A DNA stretch of 64,000 nucleotides, taken from positions 30,884 to 94,883 of the forward strand of contig JAJFFE010000145.1 in NCBI GenBank assembly GCA_021776775.1. Direction: 5' to 3'. The notes below the pieces were generated by a model. It was given only the letters and a program-made list of their open reading frames with translations. It was not told the DNA's origin and made no database searches. Below, in pieces: positions 3,470 to 30,220 of the stretch (the first letter of the stretch is position 1; every line of letters starts with the position of its first letter). The position numbers were made by a program, and so were the translations under genes. The stretch is from Planctomycetota bacterium (GTDB lineage: Bacteria > Planctomycetota > UBA8108 > UBA1146 > JAJFFE01).

Positions 3470-4207
3470 TCAAGCGGGGCTGTCGGTCGAACTATCGACG
3501 GGCACCGCAGCCCCAGAAGACGTAGACGGCGCCGCGAGATCCGCCAACGCGTGAGCCCAATCAGGCAGGTCTTCTTGTCCCTTGGGCGAGAGATCGTAGT
3601 GGCCGGTCTTCACCCGATCGAACCAACCGTAGTGGTTATCGCGCAGGATGGCCCCGGCACGCTCAACACCGGTGCGCTCGCGAATTCCGCTGACTTTCAG
3701 CACACCCGCCTCGGCCAACTCGCGCGCGCAGCGCAACGCGTCCTGTCGATACGCCGTGAGTCGCTTGCGCGCCGCCGACCCCCCCGCCTCCGGATCTCCA
3801 ACTCGCTCAGCGAACTCTTTGAGCAAGCGTTCGCGGCGCGTGCTGTTCGCGCGTGGCCGATACGGCGCAGGATCCAACACCGCCACCACGTTCCCAAGCG
3901 CGGACACGGTCAGAAGGCCAACGCCGATGCGCCGCAACAACGCCTTCACTTGCTTCCCACGCGAACGCCACGATGCGCTGTTCCCTTTGCCTATCCGAAA
4001 CGCGATGTACACGTCGTCGGACGCCGAAAGTCGATCCACCGCCTGCAGAATCAACGCGAGGTTCAGCCGTTCCTTGAGTTCGACCACCACCGGCGGCTCG
4101 TCGCCGCGCACCGCAACAATATCGCAAGCCCCGATCTCCCCCTTGACGACGTAACCCTGCGCCTCGAGAAACCGCTTGATCGGATCGTAGAGCTGAACCT
4201 CAGACAT
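3470..4207 (-). CDS. hypothetical protein with N-terminal PD-(D/E)xK nuclease-like fold (CDIVAV...VVVELKER) and C-terminal winged-helix-like region. DUF2161-like.
   Basis: The D...ExK motif spacing is typical of restriction-endonuclease-like or Hjc-like folds. There is a TAGAAT -10-like box about 35 nt upstream. It is the same-strand neighbour of lexA across a repeat-filled gap. Confidence 0.5.
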   Translation of the reverse strand: MSEVQLYDPIKRFLEAQGYVVKGEIGACDIVAVRGDEPPVVVELKERLNLALILQAVDRLSASDDVYIAFRIGKGNSASWRSRGKQVKALLRRIGVGLLTVSALGNVVAVLDPAPYRPRANSTRRERLLKEFAERVGDPEAGGSAARKRLTAYRQDALRCARELAEAGVLKVSGIRERTGVERAGAILRDNHYGWFDRVKTGHYDLSPKGQEDLPDWAHALADLAAPSTSSGAAVPVDSSTDSPA

Positions 4208-4359
4208 ATGCCACCAGAGCCGGTCTCTTTCCCGCTTGCGCTTCGTTCGTTAGAGCGTGCATTCTAGCCTACTCCCAAAAGCGAACCAGCCGAGCGAAGG
4301 CGCCGCGCTTGCGTCGGTTGAATCGCGGGTGATGGTCGTTGAAGGTTGGAGAATAAGAC

Positions 4360-4650
4360 GGGCACATCATGGCGTGGCTCGAACACCAGTGGGTTGGGGA
4401 TGGTCACGTCGATGGCTCGCCACCGACTATGAGGCACGGGAATGGGGTTGTTCGCCGGGTTGCGGGTTGGCAAACAAGCACGCCGTGAGAACGAGGGACG
4501 AGCGCATCGAGGCGTGAACGATTCTGTTCCGGGCGAGGGGCACCGGGGATGCCCGACTCCGTTGGGTGTCGGTTGTGATACGTGGATGTTGCTAGGGGCT
4601 ATGTGATCCCTGACGGGGATGCCGATGGGCCATCTCGTCCGGACGGGATG
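4360..4650 (-). repeat. ~285-bp dispersed repeat, copy 1 (inverted relative to copy 2)
   Basis: It is near-identical along its length to the reverse complement of 29178-29459. It ends with GGGCACATCATGGCGTGGCTCGAACACC. Confidence 0.8.
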
Positions 4651-4989
4651 CGCGGCCGCAATGTTCCTCTGTCTTGGGCTCGCTTTTGTGCGATGAATCG
4701 GAACGGCAGGCCGGCCCTGACGCGGCTGGCTCGGCGGACGCAGATGGGGTTGCCCCAGCAAAACAAATGTCGAGCGATACAGTATCGCGCAGCCCGGGGA
4801 CCAGTGACCAACCGATCCACGCGAATCCCGTCCGGGCGAGGTCTACGTCACCGACTAGTGATGTAGACCGCAGTCTCAGCAAGACCCCGCCTGCGAAGCT
4901 GCGCTGTCGGGTAGGTACAGTCCCACAGTTCGCGTCACATCGTTTGCACGATGTCGCATTCGGCGGCGCAACCAAACGACGCCTCATGT

Positions 4990-5270
4990 TCGCCCCTCAG
5001 ATACCGCACACAGCCCGGTACGGATCACGCCGCCCAGCGAACATTGCTCATCGCCCAACACGCAGCCGCGAGCATCGGGCATCCTCGCTGCCCCTCGCCC
5101 CGAACCGACACGTTCGCGCTCCGATGCGCCCGTCCCTCGTTCTCAGCCGTGCTTGTTTGCCAAACCGCAACCCGGCGACCGACCTCACTCCCGTGCCTCA
5201 TAGTCGGTGGCGAGCCAGCGACTCGACCATCCCCAACCCACTGGTGTTCGAGCCACGCCACGATGTGCCC
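4990..5270 (+). repeat. ~285-bp dispersed repeat, copy 2 (more diverged in the 5' third)
   Basis: 5078-5270 aligns almost base-for-base with 29270-29459. It shares the terminal GGTGTTCGAGCCACGCCACGATGTGCCC. Confidence 0.75.
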
Positions 5271-5326
5271 GTCTCCTTCGTCTTCATCTCCCGCTGCGCG
5301 ACGTGATGGCCTCGCAACAGGACAGC

Positions 5327-5986
5327 TCAGATGGTTCGGCGAACCTCGACCACACGGCCGAGGATGCGAAACCCGCTCTTCGCCTCTGGGACGATGACTT
5401 CGTAGTTCGGGTTCTCTGGGTGGAGTTCGATGCGGCGACCACGACGGCGGAGTCGTTTGACGGTCGCTTCCGGTTCACCGCTTTCGCCGTCGATCAGGGC
5501 GACGACGATATCACCTGACTTTGCGGTGACCTGTTGTTTCACAATGACAACGTCCCCGGGCAGGATCGCAGCGTCGATCATGCTGTCGCCTTCGACTCGC
5601 AACGCGAAGTGATCGTCGGCCGCGCCGCTGGCGTCGAATGCGAGCACCCCGTCCGCGGTTTCGATCGCAACGTGCAGATCGCCGGCGTGCACGTGGCCCA
5701 CGAGTGGCACCCAACTGAGCGACGTGGTGGAGGTCTCGCCATCGAAGAGTTGCGGCAGTCGATAGCCGCGCGCACGGCCGGAGCGCTTGGTCAGCCGGCC
5801 TTCGGCGACGAGCTTCTCGAGGTGTTCACGCGCGGTTTGCACGGCGCGAAAACCGAACTCGCCCTGAACTTCACGGACGGTCGGCGACTCTCCACGCAGG
5901 AGCGAGTCCCGAACGAAGCGGAAGACACGCTCTCTCGTTTCGCCGGGTGGGGTTCGGGAAGACATGGGGAACATGGTACCAGACAC
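5327..5986 (-). CDS. lexA: LexA repressor (S24 peptidase)
   Basis: wHTH N-domain (ETRERVFRFV...TVREV), Ala-Gly cleavage region, and GDSM...VKRL Ser/Lys dyad. The likely true start is the internal ATG near 5965 (MSSRTPPGETRERVF). Confidence 0.85.
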   Translation of the reverse strand: MSGTMFPMSSRTPPGETRERVFRFVRDSLLRGESPTVREVQGEFGFRAVQTAREHLEKLVAEGRLTKRSGRARGYRLPQLFDGETSTTSLSWVPLVGHVHAGDLHVAIETADGVLAFDASGAADDHFALRVEGDSMIDAAILPGDVVIVKQQVTAKSGDIVVALIDGESGEPEATVKRLRRRGRRIELHPENPNYEVIVPEAKSGFRILGRVVEVRRTI

Positions 5987-9983: not shown

Positions 9984-10718
9984 TCACCGCTTCTTGGCCG
10001 TCTTCTTTCGAACGAACTTCTTGCGCGGAACCTTCTTGATTGCCATCTGCTTGCGCGGAGTGGCCCTCTTGCTGGCAACTTTCTGGGCCGAACGACTCGC
10101 CGGCTCGTTCGATGTAGGTGTGCTCGCCCGGACCGCGGTCTTCTTCTTGGCCACCTTCTTCTTGGCCACTGTCTTCGTCGCCGCCTTCTTGCTCGAGCTC
10201 TTCTTCGCGACCTTCTTGGCGGCGGCCTTCTTCTTCCCGACCTTCTTTGCCGCCTTCTTGCTCGCGGCTTTCTTGCTTCCCTTGGACGCCGTCTTCTTCT
10301 GGGCTTTCTTCTGGGCTTTCTTCTTTGCCTTCTTTGCCGCCGGTGTCGGTTGCGTCGCGGTAGCACTCGGATCACCTAGCTGCGCTAACACGCGCTTCGG
10401 CGCGATCAATCGGAAACTCTCATGCACGAGGGTTTCGATGTAGTGCCAGTCATCGACAGCGTTGGCGTCGACCGAGACCCATCCGTGTTTACCGACGTAG
10501 GCAGATTTCGTGAATCGTTCGTCGAGGCTGATCAGCTCCAACGCGTGATCCATCTCTAGCTTGAACCCGATGCTGCGCTTGTCGCCCTTCTCGCTGTACC
10601 CGGCGAAGATCTTGTCTTTCACGCGGAAGTGGGGATTACCCCAAGTCATCGTCTCTTGGGTCTCGGGCAACGCGAGACAGATGGATCGCATCTTGTTCAA
10701 AGCTGTTCCGCCGCGCAC
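9984..10718 (-). CDS. MmcQ/YjbR-family domain fused to a Lys/Ala-rich histone H1-like C-terminal tail
   Basis: N-terminal ~120 aa is ICLALPETQETMTWGNPHFRVKDKIFA...HGWVSVD (YjbR-like). The C-terminal ~120 aa is AKKAKKKAQKKAQKK...VAKKK repeats. Confidence 0.7.
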   Translation of the reverse strand: MRGGTALNKMRSICLALPETQETMTWGNPHFRVKDKIFAGYSEKGDKRSIGFKLEMDHALELISLDERFTKSAYVGKHGWVSVDANAVDDWHYIETLVHESFRLIAPKRVLAQLGDPSATATQPTPAAKKAKKKAQKKAQKKTASKGSKKAASKKAAKKVGKKKAAAKKVAKKSSSKKAATKTVAKKKVAKKKTAVRASTPTSNEPASRSAQKVASKRATPRKQMAIKKVPRKKFVRKKTAKKR

Positions 10719-13141: not shown

Positions 13142-14122
13142 ATGGCGGCGCGCTGGGAATCCCTGGTTCACACTCCCCTCACCATTCGCTGTCGAGTTCG
13201 CGCCGCTCTGCGCGATTCGTCGCGACCGATCCTCGTCGGACCGTGGTGTTCCGAGGTTGGCTTCGAGTTGCTCTACTGGATTCCATTCCTGCGCAAGACA
13301 CTCGGCGACGCGGGTATCGACCCCGCCCGAGTCATCGCCGCCTCGCGAGGCGGTGCCGAGCCGTGGTACTCCGGTATTGCCGATACGTACTACGACTTGA
13401 TGGACGCCAAGTCCCACGCGGAGTACCTCTCGTACACGACAACTCGAGAAGCGCAGCAAGGCGTCAAGAAGCAGCTCGACCTCGTCGCGTGCGAAAGAGC
13501 GCTGATCAACGAGCTCTCGTCCGACTTCGAAGACCCGGTGGTTTTTCATCCATCGCTCATGTATCGACTCTTCGCCGCCGTATGGCGCGGAATGAAGCCG
13601 GTCGAATACGCCCTGGAGCGGTGCCACCACGTTCCGATGGATCGCAACCTGCCGCTGCCGGAAGGTTGCCCGTTCGGCGACGAGCCGTACGCGGCAATCA
13701 AGTTGTACCGATCCGACGCGTGGCCGCAGAACGAATCGAGCGCGGCGTTCGTACGAGACTTGCTCGCGAGTCTTGCGTCTCGCATGCCGGTGGTCGTCCT
13801 GCAAGCAGGGTTCGACATGGACGATCACCGCGATCACAGCCTGCCCGACGGGGTCCGCATCATCGACGCGTCGCCATGGATCGAACCGCGCACGAACCTT
13901 GCGGTACAGTCTGCTATCGTCGCGCACGCCAGCGAACTGCACACGACCTATGGCGGCTTTGCGTATCTCGGGGCGCTACTAGGAGTCCCGACGACCGCGT
14001 ACTACTCCAACGACGGGTTCGTGGCGGACCACCTCCAAGTGTCGAACCAGATTTTTTCGGGCCCTGGCTTCGCTGCTATTCGCGAGCGCCGCATCGTCGA
14101 TGGAGCACTGGCGTCCGAATGA
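13142..14122 (+). CDS. GT-B-like protein, paralog of the C-terminal half of the 23668..26724 protein
   Basis: ILVGPWCSEVGFELLYWIPF and TYGGFAYLGALLGVPT match VVIGPWMGEVGFEVLYWIPF and TYGGFSYLAPFYGVPS in the fused paralog. The start is uncertain (track 12932). Confidence 0.55.
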   Translation: MAARWESLVHTPLTIRCRVRAALRDSSRPILVGPWCSEVGFELLYWIPFLRKTLGDAGIDPARVIAASRGGAEPWYSGIADTYYDLMDAKSHAEYLSYTTTREAQQGVKKQLDLVACERALINELSSDFEDPVVFHPSLMYRLFAAVWRGMKPVEYALERCHHVPMDRNLPLPEGCPFGDEPYAAIKLYRSDAWPQNESSAAFVRDLLASLASRMPVVVLQAGFDMDDHRDHSLPDGVRIIDASPWIEPRTNLAVQSAIVAHASELHTTYGGFAYLGALLGVPTTAYYSNDGFVADHLQVSNQIFSGPGFAAIRERRIVDGALASE

Positions 14123-14150: not shown

Positions 14151-15632
14151 ATGAAACCGAAGACACCGCTACGCGTGTTGATCGTGCTTCAGTACCCGGG
14201 CTACCTACGGTACTTCGACTCCGTCATCGAAGAGCTGTCGCGCCGCGGCCACTCGGTCACGGTCTCGTTCGACAAGTTGGACAAACAGCGCGAAGGGCTG
14301 ATCGGTCTCGAGGCAATCCCGCGGGTCACCCGCATCGATACGATCTCGAATCGCCACGACGCGTTTCGGATCGTCGCGCGCGAGTTGCGCACCGTCATCG
14401 ACTACGTCCGTTACAAGCACCCCGACTTTCGAAGTTCGCCGTATCTCAGCGAACGAATGCGCGACGCGCTCCCGCGACCGCTGCGCTGGCTCGGCGGGTT
14501 GTCGACGCTGTCGCCGAAGACGGTCGATCGCACGATTCGTGGTCTTCTCTACCTGGAGAAGTGCATCCCGAGCTCTTCGCAAATTCGTGCAGCCATCGAG
14601 TCGGTCGCGCCCGACGTCGTCTTGGTCAGTCCTCTCGTCACCAAGGGATCTCCACAGGTCGACGTCGTCAAAGCGGCGCAAGCGTTGGGAGTGCCGTGCG
14701 CGTTGGGCGTCGGAAGTTGGGACCACCTGACGACGAAAGGGTTGGTGCGTATCGTTCCCGATCGCGTGTTCGTTTGGAACGAACTACAACGCGCCGAAGC
14801 GGTCAAGTATCACCAAGTCGAAGCGGGTCGCGTGAAGGTGACGGGCGCGCAAAACTTCGACAAGTGGTTCCACTGGCGGCCGGGGAGCTCGGCCGACGAA
14901 TTCCGCGCGAAGGTCGGCCTGCCCCCGGGCAAGCCGTACGTGCTCTTCGTCGGATCGACGGCGTCGATCTCCGCCCCGGACGCCGAGGTCGAGTGGGTGA
15001 CGGAGTGGCTACGTCAAATGCGCAGTCAAGACGCACCGCTCGCCAAGACGTCGGTGCTGATTCGTCCGCACCCGTACAATCTGGGTCGGTGGGACAAGGT
15101 CGACCTGTCGGAGTTCGCTAACGTCGCGGTCTATCCACGATTCCAAGCAAACCCGGTGGCGTCCGACGACCGCCAAGACTACTTCGACTCGATTCACCAC
15201 TCGGCCGCCGTCGTCGGCATCAACACGAGCGCCATGATCGAAGCGGCCATCCTCGACAAGCCGGTGCACACCATTCGCACGGAAGAGTTCGCACGCACGC
15301 AAGAAGGCACGCTGCACTTCCGCTACATGCTGCCTGAGAACGGCGGCTTCCTGAACGTCGCGGCGGACCCTGCCGAACACTTCGAGCAGCTCGCCAGCAA
15401 CCTCAAGGATCCAGAGACGAGCCGAGCGATCACGCAACGGTTTGTCCGCCACTTCCTGCGACCGCTCGGCATCCATCGAGACGCCACGCCGACCTTCGCC
15501 ACGCAGCTCGAACGGCTCGGCGCCCAGCAACCATCGCCGCGGCGCGATCGTACGATTGCCCATCCGGTCACCGCGATGTTTGCGCTCGCCGGCTTCGCGT
15601 TGAACGCACTGCGCCGACTTCGACGCGGCTAA
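14151..15632 (+). CDS. TagF-like CDP-alcohol phosphotransferase / GT-B protein, paralog of the N-terminal half of the 23668..26724 protein
   Basis: LGVGSWDHLTTKGLV, VVGINTSAMIEAAILDKPVHTIRTEEFARTQEGTLHFRY and LIRPHP match the fused paralog. The start is uncertain (track 14100). Confidence 0.6.
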   Translation: MKPKTPLRVLIVLQYPGYLRYFDSVIEELSRRGHSVTVSFDKLDKQREGLIGLEAIPRVTRIDTISNRHDAFRIVARELRTVIDYVRYKHPDFRSSPYLSERMRDALPRPLRWLGGLSTLSPKTVDRTIRGLLYLEKCIPSSSQIRAAIESVAPDVVLVSPLVTKGSPQVDVVKAAQALGVPCALGVGSWDHLTTKGLVRIVPDRVFVWNELQRAEAVKYHQVEAGRVKVTGAQNFDKWFHWRPGSSADEFRAKVGLPPGKPYVLFVGSTASISAPDAEVEWVTEWLRQMRSQDAPLAKTSVLIRPHPYNLGRWDKVDLSEFANVAVYPRFQANPVASDDRQDYFDSIHHSAAVVGINTSAMIEAAILDKPVHTIRTEEFARTQEGTLHFRYMLPENGGFLNVAADPAEHFEQLASNLKDPETSRAITQRFVRHFLRPLGIHRDATPTFATQLERLGAQQPSPRRDRTIAHPVTAMFALAGFALNALRRLRRG

Positions 15633-23667: not shown

Positions 23668-26600
23668 ATGATCGCTCCCCAACCTCCGAACGCTGACGCC
23701 GTGTCCGCGACCCCGTCGGTTTCGACGGGCGGCGCGACCGCTCCATCGAGACTCCATCTCGCGTTTTGCATGCGGCATTCGGGCTACTTACGACTTTACG
23801 AGTCTTTCCTCAGGGAACTCGCCGCACGCGGTCACACCGTTCATCTCGTGATCCGACAGTTCGACGCACTCTACGACGAGCGCGTGCTCGGAGCGCTCGA
23901 AGAAGAACTGGTGCCACACCTGACTTGGGAAGTACTCGACGAAACCCGTCTCGAGCCGGGTCGGCTGCTGCTGCGACTGCTGCGTTGCATGCAGGACTAC
24001 CTGCGTTACTTAGCCCCGGCGTACCGAACCGCGCACTCGCTGCGCGCGCGCGCAGCAACCCGCCTCCCACGAGTCGCGCGCGCTGTTTGCAACGTCGTCG
24101 GTCGATCGCAAGCGTTGAGCTGGGGGCTGATTCGACTCCTGCGCGGCGTCGACCAATGTGTCGGCGCCCCGACCTCACTCGTCGAATGGCTCGACGCCCG
24201 TCAACCCGACGCGCTGATCATCACACCGCTCGTCGACTTCGGGGCGACTCAGTTGCCGTGGATGAAGGCAGCGCGAGTCGCCAGCACACCGACCATTCTC
24301 GCCGTCGCGAGTTGGGACAATCTGACCAACAAGGGGTTGGTCCAGCTCGAACCCGACGGCGTCCTCTTGTGGAACCGCTTTCAAGAAAAGGAAGCGCGAA
24401 CCTTCCACCGGTTGACGCGGACACGCATTGCCACGACCGGTGCGCAAGTCTTCGATCCATGGTTCGCCATGAAGCCGTCGACGACCGAAACGGAGTTCCG
24501 CCAACGGGTGGGGCTCGAGCCCGATCGCAACCACCTGCTGTACCTGTGCTCTTCGCCTTTCATCGCCCCGGACGAGGTCTCTTTCGTGAAGCGTTGGCTC
24601 GACGCCTTGAGAAACTCGGATGCTCTCGGCGCGAAGACGGTCGGCGTGTTGATTCGGCCGCACCCACAGAATGCCACGCAGTGGGACGCGTTCGATGAAA
24701 CCGAGTACCCGAACGTCGCCGTTCACCCCCGCGGCGGGGCGACCCCGATTCACACCTCGACGAGAAACGACTTCTTCGACTCGATGGCGCACGCGCAAGC
24801 GGTCATCGGCATCAATACGAGCGCTATGATCGAAGCGGGCATCCTCGACAAGCCGGTGTTCACCATTCAAGACGACGACTTCGTGGCCACGCAGGAGGGC
24901 ACGCTTCACTACCACTACCTGGTCGACGGCGGTCTGCTGACAGTCGCCAACGACCTGCCGGAGCATCTCGACCAACTTCGGGGCACCTTGATCGGGGCCG
25001 ATCCCCAAGCGGAAGCGCGTCGTTCGTTCGTCGCGGAGTTCATTCGTCCGCACGGCTGGGAAACGCCGGCCGCCGAGGTATTGACCGACAGCGTGGAATC
25101 GATGACGGCCGAGCTGCGCGCTCATCCGCGAACGCCCAGCATCGGCGAACGAGTCGCCGCGCTCCCAAGTGGCGCGTCGAAAGCGCTCGCTCGCCACCCC
25201 CGCGCCGCGCTGTTGTTGACCGCGTTGGCGTTGCCATTCCTGACGCTCGGCCGCTGGATCGCCAGTTGGGGCAACAGTCGACGAGTGCTCCATCTTCTGC
25301 GCTGCGGACATCAACGCGACGCGGCGGCGATCCCCGATCCGTTGCTGTTCGGCGATCTCGTGCGAGCGCCCGGACGCAAGGTTTCCGTGCTGCTCAATGG
25401 ATCGATTGCTGCCCGCTGCCTCGGCGTGGCCCTGACGCCGTTGTTGCTCGTCGCGTTTTTCTTGGTGATCGTCTACGGCGCGGCCGTGGCCATCATCGAT
25501 CTCCCCTTCATGCTGGGGTACCCGCTGTTTCTGCTCTGCACTCGCTACCGCTCGCAACCACGAACATTGATCCGCCTCCTGATCGTCGGTCCGACCAAAG
25601 CGCGCACCAGCGCGAGCAAGCTGGACGCGATCCGTGATCCGATTCAGCTGCTCGACGCCATGGACCAACGCTGCTACGGAACGGCGCCGATATCAGCGGT
25701 GCTCAACAAGCTGCGCGCCAGCGATCGACCGGTCGTCATCGGACCGTGGATGGGTGAAGTCGGCTTCGAAGTTCTCTACTGGATTCCGTTTGTCTCATGG
25801 CTCTTGCGCGCGGCGAAGGTCGACAGCGACCGAGTTCATATCGCTTCGCGAGGCGGAACCGCGGAGTGGTATCAGGCGATCGGCGGCCGATACGAAGACC
25901 TGCTTGGCCACCACACGGTCGAAGAGTTCCGCGCGTTTCAGGACCGGCGGGTCCGCGAGATCGGACACCAAAAGCAGTCGAAGATCACCGGGGCTGATCG
26001 CTCGGCGCTGGCCCCTGTTCTCGACGCTTGGGATGTCCAGCAGTACGAGTTGGTGCATCCATCGATCATGTACGGCGTCTTCCGCCACTTCTGGTTCGGC
26101 GAGATGCCGCTACGCGCAATCGGCTTGCTGTGCGATTTCAAACGTCTCGAACACCACCGACCGGAGTGGAGCGTCGTTTCCGACTTGCCCGAACAATACG
26201 TCGCCATGAAGTTCTACTTCTCCGAGAGCTTCCCGGACACGTCCGAAACTCGTGCGTTCGTGCGCGACGTTCTGGAGACCGTGGCTCGACACAACAAGGT
26301 CGTGCTCCTCAACACGCAGTTGGAACTCGACGAGCACAAGGAACTGAGCGACGGAATACCCGAGAGTGTCTTGGTTCTGTCGAAGGAGATGCTTCCGCAC
26401 AACAACCTCGAGGTTCAAACCCAGGTGATCGCGGGGGCCAGTGCGTTCATCGGAACGTACGGCGGGTTCTCTTACCTCGCGCCCTTCTACGGAGTTCCGA
26501 GCTTCGCGTTCCATGCCAACGAAGACGGATTCGTGCCGGAGCATGTCGACACTGCTCACCTGGCGTTTCGAACGGCAAACGAACATGCCGCTCTTGCCGC

Positions 26601-26724
26601 GAACTTCACTATGTTCAGCACGCAACAGTGGAAAATCCTAGCCAGCTTCTTCGGTAGCGCCGCCGCCGCGAGCAAAGAAGAATGGCGACGACTTCCGAAT
26701 GACGTTTCCGCTCCGAAGCCTTAG
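23668..26724 (+). CDS. 1018-aa fusion of a TagF-like phosphotransferase/GT-B domain and a second GT-B-like domain (polysaccharide biosynthesis)
   Basis: The N-half is homologous to 14151..15632. The C-half is homologous to 13142..14122. A hydrophobic linker (LLLVAFFLVIVYGAAVAII) lies between the halves. Confidence 0.7.
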   Translation: MIAPQPPNADAVSATPSVSTGGATAPSRLHLAFCMRHSGYLRLYESFLRELAARGHTVHLVIRQFDALYDERVLGALEEELVPHLTWEVLDETRLEPGRLLLRLLRCMQDYLRYLAPAYRTAHSLRARAATRLPRVARAVCNVVGRSQALSWGLIRLLRGVDQCVGAPTSLVEWLDARQPDALIITPLVDFGATQLPWMKAARVASTPTILAVASWDNLTNKGLVQLEPDGVLLWNRFQEKEARTFHRLTRTRIATTGAQVFDPWFAMKPSTTETEFRQRVGLEPDRNHLLYLCSSPFIAPDEVSFVKRWLDALRNSDALGAKTVGVLIRPHPQNATQWDAFDETEYPNVAVHPRGGATPIHTSTRNDFFDSMAHAQAVIGINTSAMIEAGILDKPVFTIQDDDFVATQEGTLHYHYLVDGGLLTVANDLPEHLDQLRGTLIGADPQAEARRSFVAEFIRPHGWETPAAEVLTDSVESMTAELRAHPRTPSIGERVAALPSGASKALARHPRAALLLTALALPFLTLGRWIASWGNSRRVLHLLRCGHQRDAAAIPDPLLFGDLVRAPGRKVSVLLNGSIAARCLGVALTPLLLVAFFLVIVYGAAVAIIDLPFMLGYPLFLLCTRYRSQPRTLIRLLIVGPTKARTSASKLDAIRDPIQLLDAMDQRCYGTAPISAVLNKLRASDRPVVIGPWMGEVGFEVLYWIPFVSWLLRAAKVDSDRVHIASRGGTAEWYQAIGGRYEDLLGHHTVEEFRAFQDRRVREIGHQKQSKITGADRSALAPVLDAWDVQQYELVHPSIMYGVFRHFWFGEMPLRAIGLLCDFKRLEHHRPEWSVVSDLPEQYVAMKFYFSESFPDTSETRAFVRDVLETVARHNKVVLLNTQLELDEHKELSDGIPESVLVLSKEMLPHNNLEVQTQVIAGASAFIGTYGGFSYLAPFYGVPSFAFHANEDGFVPEHVDTAHLAFRTANEHAALAANFTMFSTQQWKILASFFGSAAAASKEEWRRLPNDVSAPKP

Positions 26725-26905: not shown

Positions 26906-27181
26906 CTACACGTGACAAGTTAACGTTGAACAGAAGTCGTGTAACGCCCCGACCAGGTTCTTCGCGTGGAGGCTTCTGACAGGCGGGTGGGGCGCATCGT
27001 GGCGTGGCTCGAACACCAAGTGCACCTGAAATGCCCGAATCTCCTCCGGCCCCATCCCCGAAGGACAACGCCCAAAGAACCGCGCAAACGCCGCAACACA
27101 CTCCACGTACCGACGAACCGTCACCTTCGAGTACTTCCGAAGCTGCATGTCCTCGATCATCCGCTGACGAAGCTGAGTCAT
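26906..27181 (-). pseudogene. intI: truncated integron-integrase-like tyrosine recombinase gene (intI-like). Only the N-terminal ~55 codons are intact.
   Basis: Strong RBS AAGGAG, 7 nt, then ATG. MTQLRQRMIEDMQLRKYSKVTVRRYVECVAAFARFFGRCPSGMGPEEIRAFQVHL matches the IntI N-terminal SAM-like pattern (R.YS..T..YV...F..F...P..MG..EI.AF..HL). The reading frame then enters the 28-bp repeat end (VFEPRHDAP...) and stops. Confidence 0.6.
26989..27018 (-). repeat. 28-bp terminal fragment of the ~285-bp repeat, located exactly at the intI truncation junction
   Basis: GGGCGCATCGTGGCGTGGCTCGAACACC is shared with the ends of repeat copies 1 to 3. Confidence 0.7.
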
Positions 27182-27426
27182 ACCATGACTCCTTTCCGCT
27201 TCGTCTGTCGGACAGATCCATCGAGTTGTATACTTGCGAGCGTAAACGGATGGTCAAGAGGGCGCCGCCCCAGAGCCTAGCGCGCAGCGCTTGAGTTCAA
27301 CTAGTCGCCGCAGCAGACCAAGGGCAGTCTTCCTTCTTCACCACCGGGTGTCACCGGGTCGCATCCGCCCGTACAATCCAAGCTTTCCCTAATGCTGCCC
27401 CTCGCAGCTGAGCTTCGACGTTAGGG
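27182..27426 (+). promoter_or_regulatory. attI-like / promoter region between intI start and first cassette core
   Basis: Perfect 13-bp palindrome TCTGTCGGACAGA at 27204-27216, just upstream of the intI start. TACAAT -10-like box at 27372-27377 faces the cassettes. First R' core GTTAGGG at 27420-27426. Confidence 0.4.
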
Positions 27427-27438
27427 GGACAACCGCAA

Positions 27439-27816
27439 GTGAGAAGGCGTTCGCACAGTATCGTACTACTCGCTCTCCTCGTCCCCGTGCTGCTCTGGTC
27501 GACGTGGCGCGTGGGTTTTCACATCTCTTACGAACCAACGCTGAATTTCCTTGTTTATCCCGAAACCGCTAACGGCGCCGCATTCGTAAAGCGCGTATAC
27601 CTGCCGCGCTTCGAGACGATGTACGACTATGGGCTGGACTGGATTGGCCGCGGGTGCCCGTTCTCAGAGTTCGAGCGTCACATCGACCCTGGCACCAAGA
27701 TCACGTACTATCCGCCAGACGGCTGTTTGTCGTTTGACGTCGTCTACGACAGAGTTGGCCTACTCGACAGAATATCGACCCTCGAGTATGCGCATATCGA
27801 CCTATCGCCACCCTAA
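27439..27816 (+). CDS. cassette ORF 1: small secreted or membrane-anchored hypothetical protein
   Basis: GTG start 12 nt after the GTTAGGG core with a GGGGGA Shine-Dalgarno. N-terminal signal or TM segment. The stop TAA is embedded in CCCTAAC. Confidence 0.5.
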   Translation: MRRRSHSIVLLALLVPVLLWSTWRVGFHISYEPTLNFLVYPETANGAAFVKRVYLPRFETMYDYGLDWIGRGCPFSEFERHIDPGTKITYYPPDGCLSFDVVYDRVGLLDRISTLEYAHIDLSPP

Positions 27817-27938
27817 CTCGTCGCTACCGACCAACGGGGCAGTAGCTTGTGCCACGTCGCGGTCACCCGCACAATGTCGCTTCGTCGAATCCAGTTTCAT
27901 CATCCGCTGCCCCCGGCAGCTGAGCTTCAACGTTGGAC
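27811..27938 (+). other. attC-like site 1 (128 bp): R'' CCCTAAC ... R' G|TTGGAC
   Basis: R'' is the exact complement of the upstream R' GTTAGGG. The 3' half (GCTGCCCCCGGCAGCTGAGCTTCAAC) is conserved with the other cassette junctions. Confidence 0.55.
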
Positions 27939-27945
27939 GGATCGA

Positions 27946-28362
27946 GTGGAAGTCACTCTCCCCGGGATATACATATCCGAGAACTTCGGGGTTGTGCGAA
28001 GCCTGTCGGAGCTCAATACCGGAAACGCGCTGAGCGTCAAAAGCGGCTTCTTTCGGGATCTGGAGTTCTACGACAACGCGGGCAACTCGTGGCGTCCGGC
28101 GAAAGTCGAAGTTCACCCGCGCCCGACATGGTGGCGGGTGCTCTTGAACCTTCGTTGCGAGGTCGAAATCGAGTGGCAACTTGTGGGTCCCCTCGTACCG
28201 TCTCAAGTCGCTGAACGCATTTGCGAGCTGATCGACCAGGACCCGGACGACCTATACGATCAGTTTGTCACCCACGAGGAGTTGAAGGCCCTGGTGCGCG
28301 CAGCACAGGATCCAGCGGCGCTCGTACGGGTGGTTGCGACTCTTGGCGACCCGGAGGAATGA
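27946..28362 (+). CDS. cassette ORF 2: hypothetical cytoplasmic protein (~139 aa)
   Basis: GTG 27946 with a GGACGG Shine-Dalgarno 5 nt upstream. The track ORF 27847 over-extends through attC1. Confidence 0.45.
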   Translation: MEVTLPGIYISENFGVVRSLSELNTGNALSVKSGFFRDLEFYDNAGNSWRPAKVEVHPRPTWWRVLLNLRCEVEIEWQLVGPLVPSQVAERICELIDQDPDDLYDQFVTHEELKALVRAAQDPAALVRVVATLGDPEE

Positions 28363-28497: not shown

Positions 28498-28634
28498 TCT
28501 GCCGCGGCGCGGTGTTCGGCTATGGAGTTTCTATTGAACGGAACTCTTGGTCGAACGCTTCGAAACGCCCGACGAGGTGGCGGCCAGGGTCGAGATGCGT
28601 TTGCGCATCGGGGAACGCCACTCACTTGTTCCAT

Positions 28635-29057
28635 TCATCCCTCGATCGGGATTCGCGTGGACCGGTGGTTCGTTGAGCCCCGTGTTGTTGGGTACAGGGT
28701 CACTGGATGTCGTGCCGCGTGATACTGAGGTCGCGGCTCGCGTACTCCGGTTGGTTGATCGATGGGTCCTGCCGACTTACGCGACGCGGCGATCTTTGAA
28801 CGCATGAACTCAGTTCCGAACTCCCGTTCCGCGTACCAAGCGTTGTGTGTTGGGCAGAGGGCTCGCAGGTTGATCTCGTCATTCGAGCCGTCCTTGCTGA
28901 ACGGAACCAAGTGATCGATCTGAAGGCCTGTTCGCACGCCACAGCGATGCTGATCACGGCCGACGAATTCGCACCGCTGCCCGGCTTGGTGGAGCACTCG
29001 CTCACGTGTTTCACTTGGAATGTATCGGGATCGTTCCTTGGCCTTTGCAGAGTCCAA
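28635..29057 (-). CDS. HNH endonuclease (inside cassette X, opposite orientation)
   Basis: CEFVGRDQHRC...LQIDHLVPFSKDGSNDEINLRALCPTHN is an HNH/Cys4 motif. Confidence 0.7.
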   Translation of the reverse strand: MDSAKAKERSRYIPSETRERVLHQAGQRCEFVGRDQHRCGVRTGLQIDHLVPFSKDGSNDEINLRALCPTHNAWYAEREFGTEFMRSKIAASRKSAGPIDQPTGVREPRPQYHAARHPVTLYPTTRGSTNHRSTRIPIEG

Positions 29058-29177
29058 GCCGTCAGAACTGGGCGAAACCTCGATGAAAACCCTGTCAAAC
29101 GAAACACGACAAAGTTCTAAAATTCATCGCGCGAAGCTGAATCCAAAACAGACGAACCACCGCGACCGCCAAACCTC

Positions 29178-29459
29178 GCCCGGACGGGGTGCCCATCCGC
29201 ATCTCCGACAGGGATCACATAGCCCCAGCCAACATCCACATATCCCACCGACACCCAACGGAGTCGGGCCCACCCGCTGCCCCTCGCCTGGAACAGAATG
29301 GTTCACGCCCCGATGCGCCCGTCCCTCGTTCACACCCGTACTTGTTTGCCAACCCGCGACCCGGCGACCAACGCCACTCCCGTCCCTCATAGTCGGTGGC
29401 GAGCCATCGACTCGACCATCCCCAACCCACTGGTGTTCGAGCCACGCCACGATGCGCCC
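29178..29459 (+). repeat. ~285-bp dispersed repeat, copy 3 (inside cassette X)
   Basis: Aligns with the reverse complement of 4360-4650 and with 4990-5270. Confidence 0.8.
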
Positions 29460-29652
29460 GTCACCTGCTTCAGGTCGCATGCGACCGTTTGCAGTGTTGG
29501 CACCGCCGCGTCGAACAAGAGCGTGTGCATCGACTTCGGATTGCCGAGCGCGATGGGACGCAACTGTTCCGGCAACGTGAACAGCGCGTGGGAGTCAGGC
29601 ATCATGAAATCACGTCGCGCGGCACTACCGCGCAGCGGTTGGGTTCAACTCG

Positions 29653-29772
29653 GCGCGGCAGCCGACAAAGGGCGTCTGCTCTCTTCAGTGCCAGGTGCTC
29701 TCGGCCCACATCCTCGGTTACAATCCACGCTCTAACGAATGCTGCCCCGGCAGCTGATCTTCAACGTTAGGC
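29653..29772 (+). other. attC-like site of cassette X (tentative): R'' GTTCAAC ... R' G|TTAGGC
   Basis: R'' is 6/7 complementary to the R' (GTTGGAC) that opens cassette X. The conserved 3' half is GCTGCCCCGGCAGCTGATCTTCAAC. Confidence 0.35.
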
Positions 29773-29776
29773 GGAG

Positions 29777-30220
29777 ATGAGCGAGGAGCGTGGGAAACAA
29801 GACAAGCCTGGGTGGACTGGGTCGTATGACCACAACAATGGTCGAACCGCGGCCACGGTCGAGCTCCTGTGTGAGTCCACCCAACTGGCAGCGGACTCTC
29901 GCTTTCAGGACTTCGCCAATCAGCTTGCCCAGCACGTGGCCGCCCTTGATCCCATCGCGCTGTCCACTGACGACATTCCCGAGGCTGTGTCCCGAATCCG
30001 CAGCGAGCTCTCTCGCACGTATGCGGACAAGCCGGGTGAGATTCGGGAGAAGCTTGTCGCAGCAAAGGCCCAGCTCTACGCAACCAACTCGTGCCTTCTC
30101 GACCAGAAGTGGGTGTTCGAGGACGAGCGCAGTGTTCGTGAAGTGTTGGAGCATTACGGCCAACGCTTCGGGGAACAGCTCTCTGTTGGGGCGTTCTCTC
30201 GAACAGAACGGTCCGCCTAA
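29777..30220 (+). CDS. cassette ORF 3: truncated EF-Ts paralog (core/dimerisation domain only, no N-terminal EF-Tu-binding UBA-like domain)
   Basis: Colinear match to the EF-Ts core: TAATVELLCESTQLAADSRFQDFANQLAQHVAA...KPGEIREKLVAAKAQ...LLDQKWVFEDERSVREVLEHYGQRFGEQLSVGAFSRTE. The stop TAA is inside GCCTAAC, the complement of the upstream GTTAGGC. Confidence 0.65.
   Translation: MSEERGKQDKPGWTGSYDHNNGRTAATVELLCESTQLAADSRFQDFANQLAQHVAALDPIALSTDDIPEAVSRIRSELSRTYADKPGEIREKLVAAKAQLYATNSCLLDQKWVFEDERSVREVLEHYGQRFGEQLSVGAFSRTERSA

Follow-up and report, generated by a model that had tools for sequence, protein, structure and literature searches.

We analysed a window of 64,000 nucleotides (nt) from a Planctomycetota bacterium (contig JAJFFE010000145.1, positions 30,884 to 94,883) that carries several copies of a dispersed repeat, here called repeat A. 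Two copies lie between a DUF2161 PD-(D/E)XK gene (3470-4207, minus strand, identified by Pfam) and lexA (5327-5986, minus strand). Within-window BLASTN recovered three copies and a 29-nt piece, so the dispersed family named in the original prediction, which had been read from the sequence, is real. Copy c1 occupies 4357..4700 with its G-rich strand on the plus strand; its sharp end, GACGGGCACATCATGGCGTGG, runs from 4357, and GAAC stands at 4701-4704. Copies c2 (4932..5273) and c3 (29118..29462) have their G-rich strand on the minus strand and their sharp ends at 5273 and 29462; GTTC stands beside c2 at 4928-4931. For BLASTN and copy orientation we follow the C-rich strand, on which c1 is minus and c2 and c3 are plus. 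Aligned in this way, c1 (4357-4698, minus) and c3 (29122-29462, plus) are 85-87% identical over 304-344 nt (E 1e-101 to 1e-105). Copy c2 (5075-5274, plus) is 89.6% identical to c1 over 201 nt and 88% identical to c3 over 203 nt. Under more permissive settings c2 aligns over its whole length, although over the initial ~150 nt (C-rich strand) it is only ~50% identical to c1 and c3. The 29-nt piece (26990..27018; G-rich strand plus, C-rich strand minus) matches c3 at 100% identity, c2 at 97%, and c1 at 93%. A single 23-mer, GGTGTTCGAGCCACGCCACGATG, occurs four times in the window (0.00 expected from 100 shuffles).

Measured from the GTTC tetranucleotide to the common end, the units are 344 (c1), 342 (c2), and 345 nt (c3) long, equal in spite of the divergence of c2. 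Several dimensions given earlier have to be corrected: the repeat is ~342-345 nt long rather than ~285 bp, and the three copies are not unequal in length. Because c2 is full length, c1 and c2 are separated by ~230 bp and not by 340 bp. Apart from the first ~150 nt of c2, the three copies are 85-90% identical. As had been seen, c1 and c2 form an inverted pair in the 1.1-kb gap beside lexA: the gap measures 1119 bp, and the two copies, arranged tail-to-tail, take up most of it.

The unit has one precisely defined end, GACGGGCRCATCRTGGCGTG. Read on the C-rich strand, each copy terminates ...CACGCCAYGATGYGCCCGTC, and no pairwise test relates the flanks that follow ...GCCCGTC in c1, c2, c3, and the 29-mer to one another (shuffling p 0.11-0.97). 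The end 20-mer, CACGCCNCGATGCGCCCGTC, is found in c3 at 29443-29462 and again at 29304-29323, and it recurs 139 nt further inside each copy. With exactly two occurrences per copy and one in the 29-nt fragment, it has seven matches in the window versus 0.14 expected. A palindromic motif, ATCCCGTCCGGRCGAG, is also over-represented (4 matches versus 0.25 expected; 4632-4649, 4825-4840, and 29175-29190): it lies near the side of repeat A that faces the open reading frame (ORF) described below, and also at the 3' end of a gene remnant behind c1.

The same end is found outside the window. When 1.84 billion representative proteins were searched with a profile built from the translated G-rich strand, six ORFs were returned. 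One of them, P0019, is c1. The other five, P0014-P0018, are single-member NCBI clusters on contigs of 19466, 11997, 34186, 3315, and 19291 nt; they are known through their translated ORFs only and may come from the same genome or a related one. In all five the repeat begins at the same point, ...|GRIVAWLEHQ (corresponding to GGGCGCATCGTGGCGTGGCTCGAACACCAG), after five different flanks, and P0017 carries additional partial tandem copies of the terminal motif. The sharp end is thus displayed in nine junctions. The single conserved terminus that had been proposed is borne out in at least eight copies, five of them on other NCBI contigs, and the family is neither confined to the copies first noticed nor devoid of a constant end. 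The diverged half of c2 recurs in P0017, so two subfamilies exist. Their common part is the ~200 nt next to the sharp end (88-94% conserved); the ORF-proximal ~150 nt set them apart.

DNA collections gave no relatives. A 23-mer scan of the GTDB representative genomes gave 0 matches, blastn against plasmids found no copies, and an 18-mer scan of IMG/VR gave one chance match only. The 19-mer TGGTGTTCGAGCCACGCCA had 24 matches in the JGI metagenomes (L001-L024), none extending past 19-24 nt. About half of these fall in one conserved gene that reads, from its translation, like an ABC-F ATPase (VAWLEHH motif); the rest are unrelated. The 19-mer matches are coincidental and show no homology to the repeat. 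Because relatives are absent from every searchable DNA collection (GTDB representatives, JGI metagenomes, IMG/VR, and plasmids), we regard the family as lineage-specific. The source organism itself has no close relative among the GTDB representatives: the closest LexA there, in an Acidobacteriota metagenome-assembled genome (CAWGOF010000002.1), is 56% identical, and the gene order around that locus has no neighbours in common with the window and offers no empty site for comparison.

Repeat A is linked to an HNH gene. An ORF of 140 codons (28635..29057, minus strand) that encodes an HNH endonuclease (Pfam HNH, 4.7e-6) lies 60 nt downstream of c3 on the same strand. Its top NCBIfam match is the HNH region of guided_IscB (E 1.1e-6, profile positions 181-250), at 28 bits versus a cut-off of 175 bits; the next is a phosphorothioate-dependent restriction endonuclease. 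No PLMP/RRXRR domain was found in this ORF or in P0014 (at E<=1, Pfam returned HNH families only), nor was a RuvC domain. A PDB profile search with the HNH protein returned no solved IscB, its best match being McrA (E 0.32), and a single-sequence AlphaFold model was unusable (pLDDT 46). Phage HNH genes gave weak tblastn matches to the protein; other weak tblastn matches, at 49.6-50.4 kb of the window, were judged spurious.

The linkage recurs in P0014, which reads in order through the 5' region of an integrase gene (int) in another frame (74% to window 27233-27153), repeat A, HNH, and a tail. Its HNH part is 87% identical in amino acids to the HNH ORF of the window, and its tail matches window 4753-4863, behind c1. 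There, on the plus strand (4753..4869, with the remnant proper at 4753-4863), the last ~35 codons of an HNH gene are preserved: they match P0014 residues 248-286 at 59% (E 1e-7) and include the palindrome ATCCCGTCCGGGCGAG at 4825-4840, and at the DNA level 4795-4830 matches 28682-28647 at 81%. Because c3 with its HNH gene, P0014, and the HNH tail after c1 all show this arrangement, A is the 5' non-coding module of a longer A+HNH unit. A transposase-bearing parent of the repeat was not found. Nor are the copies duplicated fragments of a larger gene; the repeat is instead a fragment of a larger unit.

A candidate for the other end of the c3 unit lies at 28594..28613 (minus strand). Beyond the HNH stop codon, at a distance of 22 nt, the hairpin GATGCGTTTGCGCATC contains the core of the terminal motif in inverted form (CCCGATGCGC, 28603-28612), a 10-mer whose one other match in the window is inside c3. 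Where the c1 and c2 units meet tail-to-tail, a near-perfect 30-nt hairpin, GGTCTACGTCACCGACTAGTGATGTAGACC (4840-4869), overlaps the end of the HNH remnant, and P0014 shares its first half; the hairpin might represent a site of recombination or the end of an element.

Repeat A itself is non-coding. The ORFs that overlap it (4264..4761, 4674..5306, and 29020..29580) have no Pfam match, substitutions between c1 and c3 fall at the three codon positions without periodicity (21/21/18), and indels of 1 nt separate the copies. Among 5.8 billion proteins, none was matched by a profile of the C-strand translation. The repeat-made ORFs that had been called spurious do exist; the two of them that were scanned (4264..4761 and 4674..5306) are without a Pfam match and the copies without codon periodicity, as that view would have it. 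No Rfam family, HEARO included, matched either locus even with the limit relaxed to E<=1, and a scan of the entire window at gathering thresholds was equally negative; a search for tRNAs found none. On neither strand does the repeat fold better than its dinucleotide shuffles (z -1.5 to +1.6), and the minimum-energy folds differ among the three copies. RNAalifold counted 11 pairs changed on both sides, versus 4.5 in shuffles and 1-5 in slid controls, in a test that is circular, with the structure derived from the same three sequences and many pairs broken in c2. Neither a sigma-70-like promoter nor an intrinsic terminator was predicted for the repeat. Terminal inverted repeats were not found: the first 60 nt and the reverse complement of the last 60 nt share only 5-8 nt (CATCG/CGATG). 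The flanks of c1, c2, and c3, read directly, hold no target-site duplication, so the earlier suggestion to look for one has a negative answer at three copies. A tandem-duplication origin of A was rejected, as no internal tandem duplication was found.

The 29-nt piece marks the point at which an integrase gene breaks off. The N-terminus of a tyrosine recombinase, ~58 intact codons with a SAM-like domain (27008..27183, minus strand; Phage_int_SAM_4, 4e-12), has integron integrases as its top NCBIfam matches, weakly (E ~2e-4); its closest relatives on plasmids are ordinary site-specific integrases. Profile homology to tyrosine recombinases stops at about codon 58-61, at the 29-mer. The end fragment that had been placed where int fails (then 28 bp) is therefore 29 nt long, at 26990-27018, and lies exactly where the homology stops. 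On the plus strand it consists of the first 29 nt of a unit, with the outer boundary (26989/26990) intact; it points towards int, its inner side joins antisense int at about codon 58, and a CACT(T)GGTG microhomology is found at the junction. Judging from these sequences, the simplest account would be a single deletion that joined nt ~29 of a unit to about codon 58 of a convergent int, removing the body of the unit and the 3' part of int. Such a deletion agrees in substance with the proposal that repeat-linked recombination killed the integrase, although it need not have been the first lesion in the gene. Two other models for int were dropped: an inversion (IYTHV motif, plus strand) had no profile support, and a continuation of int after the 29-mer (RLSEAS, RLLFNVNLSR) was colinear but not significant with the family hidden Markov model.

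Copy c3 and its HNH gene are within a small integron-like cassette array. The array is built on an attC-like repeat, B, of 127-153 nt, each copy of which closes with a GC hairpin followed by CTTCRACGTTRGR. B1 (27277-27429) precedes a plus-strand ORF at 27439-27816, B4 (27815-27941) one at 27933-28362, and B2 (29625..29775, plus strand) one at 29777-30220 with an EF_TS-like domain. The cores of the B repeats read GTTAGGG, GTTGGAC, and GTTAGGC, exact to GTTRRRY in two of the three, and their flanking arms covary (CCCTAA/TTAGGG, TCCA/TGGA, CTAACG/CGTTAG). The int remnant lies upstream of B1 on the other strand, and B1 stands where an attI site is expected. Between c3 and B2, abutting the sharp end of c3, lies a fragment of an IS91-family transposase (29463..29591, minus strand; 44 residues, positions 88-131 of 356 in NF033538); no other IS91 transposase sequence was found elsewhere in the window.

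B is also associated with c1. A 24-nt segment 85 nt upstream of its sharp end (4245..4268, minus strand) matches the left side of B2 at 21 of 24 nt, a score that 0 of 2000 shuffles reached, and has the same orientation relative to the sharp end as B2 has at c3. The distance from B to the sharp end is 162 nt at c3 and 85 nt at c1 (from the 24-nt remnant), and B is absent at c2. By the reading of translations, B-like sequence would also lie upstream in P0015 and possibly in P0017, and P0014 appears to carry the int leader that follows B1. Because B-like segments occur at c1, c3 and, in those translations, P0015 and possibly P0017, B and the sharp end appear recurrently linked through spacers that are variable and unrelated.

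Taken together, these results suggest that the non-coding, sharply ended repeat A, linked as it is to an HNH gene, is probably the ~345-nt left module of a lineage-specific, multi-copy selfish A+HNH unit, and that c1 and c2 are decayed derivatives. A complete unit would span ~0.87 kb (28594-29462, minus strand), with A followed by the 140-codon HNH endonuclease gene; c3 and its HNH gene would be a near-complete copy in the window. In this scheme c1 would have lost all of the HNH gene but the last ~35 codons, and c2, of the second subfamily, would have lost it entirely. The 29-nt scrap would be what is left of a fourth unit after a deletion that took the rest of it together with the 3' part of the tyrosine-recombinase gene. 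Because at least eight copies have identical junctions in unrelated flanks, we infer that the unit is or was mobile, and it may act as DNA, by way of its end motifs. Three routes are conceivable: homing initiated by the HNH protein, transposition by an enzyme supplied in trans, and recombination linked to the neighbouring repeat B.

Several points weigh against this view. No transposase, terminal inverted repeats, or target-site duplications were found, so that only the number of copies and the sharpness of their junctions speak for mobility. One copy alone shows the 10-nt motif taken as the candidate for the other end, and the structure of the five extra copies, which may belong to the same or a related genome, is read from translated ORFs only. 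The unit might be cassette cargo and not self-mobile, since an attC-like repeat B is found upstream of the sharp end at c1 and c3 and, by translated similarity, apparently also in P0015 and possibly in P0014 and P0017. The divergence between c3 and P0014 (13% in amino acids) is close to that of the neutral-looking A region, so the HNH gene may itself be decaying. By analogy only, the unit resembles the REP13E12-type repeats of mycobacteria, which are HNH-encoding dispersed repeats: both are dispersed chromosomal repeats of ~1 kb that encode an HNH-domain protein, but the DUF222 domain of REP13E12 is not present in the A+HNH unit.

We considered where else such a repeat might belong. The original prediction suggested that A might be a stand-alone miniature inverted-repeat transposable element (MITE), a small non-autonomous transposon, and A is indeed short (342-345 nt), non-coding, intergenic, and multi-copy (at least eight copies) with a common terminus; c1 and c2, as gene-less derivatives of a longer unit, are likewise MITE-like. 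That A is a MITE is nonetheless very unlikely: a best end-to-end match of 5-8 nt leaves it without terminal inverted repeats, none of c1, c2, and c3 has a target-site duplication, homology does not stop at the supposed second end but runs on into HNH sequence, whether gene or remnant, and A's parent carries only the HNH gene and no transposase gene. We give almost no credence to A being the oriIS-side end of an IS91-family (HUH Y2) rolling-circle element, or a deletion derivative of one. IS91-family elements target GTTC/CTTG next to oriIS and have neither terminal inverted repeats nor target-site duplications (PMC13181058), in each of the three copies GTTC is found 1-4 nt beyond the 5' end of A on the C-rich strand, and the transposase fragment that abuts c3 has the orientation expected if A lay downstream of tnpA. 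However, that fragment is outside the sharp end, is absent from c1, c2, and the other copies, and is continued by no more transposase sequence on either side. Because homology extends across GTTC as far as the HNH region, and this segment is missing from P0014, GTTC is internal to a longer unit and not a target site; the oriIS/terIS model was dropped on this ground, the homology of the unit continuing past GTTC. Chromosomal integrons commonly hold paralogous and ORF-less cassettes, and the copies could instead be cassettes of this kind (a reverse HNH gene, A, and B), multiplied and moved by an integron integrase at B and not by A. In favour of this proposal are the three-B array around c3, with its GTTRRRY-like cores, covarying R''/R' arms, and same-strand ORF after each B; the adjoining recombinase remnant with integron integrases as its top matches; and the B-like segment in the same orientation upstream of the c1 sharp end, and apparently, by translated similarity, of P0015. 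The short contigs that carry other copies would also suit an array that is hard to assemble. We nevertheless think it unlikely. The spacer between B and the sharp end varies in length and is unrelated in content: at c3 it holds the IS91 transposase fragment, and in P0014 the int start abuts the end. The two copies beside lexA, 23 kb away, have no complete attC (c1 has only 24 nt of B, c2 none), no B lies between ORF 27933-28362 and the HNH unit, the boundaries of A are off the G|TT cores, B1 occupies the expected place of attI, and the part of int that would carry the IntI-specific domain is missing.

A further alternative is that A encodes an omega-RNA-like guide scaffold for the adjacent mini-HNH protein, as in an IshB/HEARO-like OMEGA element, in which c1 and c2 would be RNA genes standing alone and the guide would come from the variable flank on the 5' side of the sharp end. 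IshB and stand-alone omega-RNAs have been described (PMC11610941, PMC10734217). The layout is that of the HEARO/OMEGA elements (IscB, IsrB, IshB; IS200/IS605 superfamily), in which an HNH ORF is immediately preceded by a non-coding region of ~300 nt whose outer boundary is sharp: in P0014 and, across a gap of 60 nt, in c3, the conserved ~345-nt region, sharply bounded at its 5' side, likewise leads into a same-strand HNH ORF. There are many copies, some of them ORF-less, there are neither terminal inverted repeats nor target-site duplications, and IscB is the top curated match of the HNH domain. The 5' 200 nt are conserved and the ORF-proximal part is subfamily-specific, and the 11 doubly changed RNAalifold pairs exceed the shuffled and slid controls. 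We nevertheless hold a guide RNA to be rather improbable. The protein here is HNH-only (140 amino acids), with neither PLMP/RRXRR nor RuvC, its IscB score is far under the cut-off, and its PDB profile search yields only McrA. Rfam returned no HEARO match, the stability z-scores and the different folds of the three copies give no sign of a stable conserved RNA structure, and the covariation test has the circularity noted above. Among the ORFs inspected near the copies, to which the search was confined within the 64-kb window, no IS200/IS605 TnpA was found. More doubtful still is the bolder form of this proposal, in which A and HNH would make up a minimal OMEGA-type system from an uncultured lineage: a nuclease of 140 residues with an HNH domain but neither PLMP nor RuvC, smaller than its relative IshB and guided by a new RNA of ~345 nt with two scaffold subfamilies and with stand-alone RNA copies in c1 and c2.

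Other repeats in the window are distinct from the A+HNH unit. Two pairs of direct repeats (15177-15329 versus 24769-24921, and 13223-13287 versus 25726-25790) are 77-78% identical and unrelated to repeat A. One arm of each pair lies within a 1018-codon ORF (23668-26724), and they may be paralogous gene segments. At 10128-10289, within the ORF 9984-10718, there are 12/15-nt periodic repeats of the type CTTCTTGGC, whose minus strand looks rich in Lys and Ala.

The A+HNH unit lacks features by which MITEs, IS91 elements, and HEARO are defined, and architecturally it is one more variation on the selfish HNH-associated repeats already known. If A is indeed the left module of a selfish unit, it represents a previously uncatalogued family of selfish DNA in a poorly sampled bacterial lineage. 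Such a unit would account for the seemingly empty 1.1-kb gap beside lexA, for the loss of the recombinase gene, and for the ORFs called over the repeat in the NCBI annotation (P0001, P0013, and P0019 lie in the window). A layout of this kind, with a mini-HNH gene behind a sharply bounded non-coding leader, opened the way from HEARO to the RNA-guided IscB nucleases, and because the layout is the same, the family is a candidate for RNA-guided activity, weak as the evidence for an RNA role is. Finally, the repeated linkage of the unit to attC-like sites bears on how selfish units colonise integron arrays.

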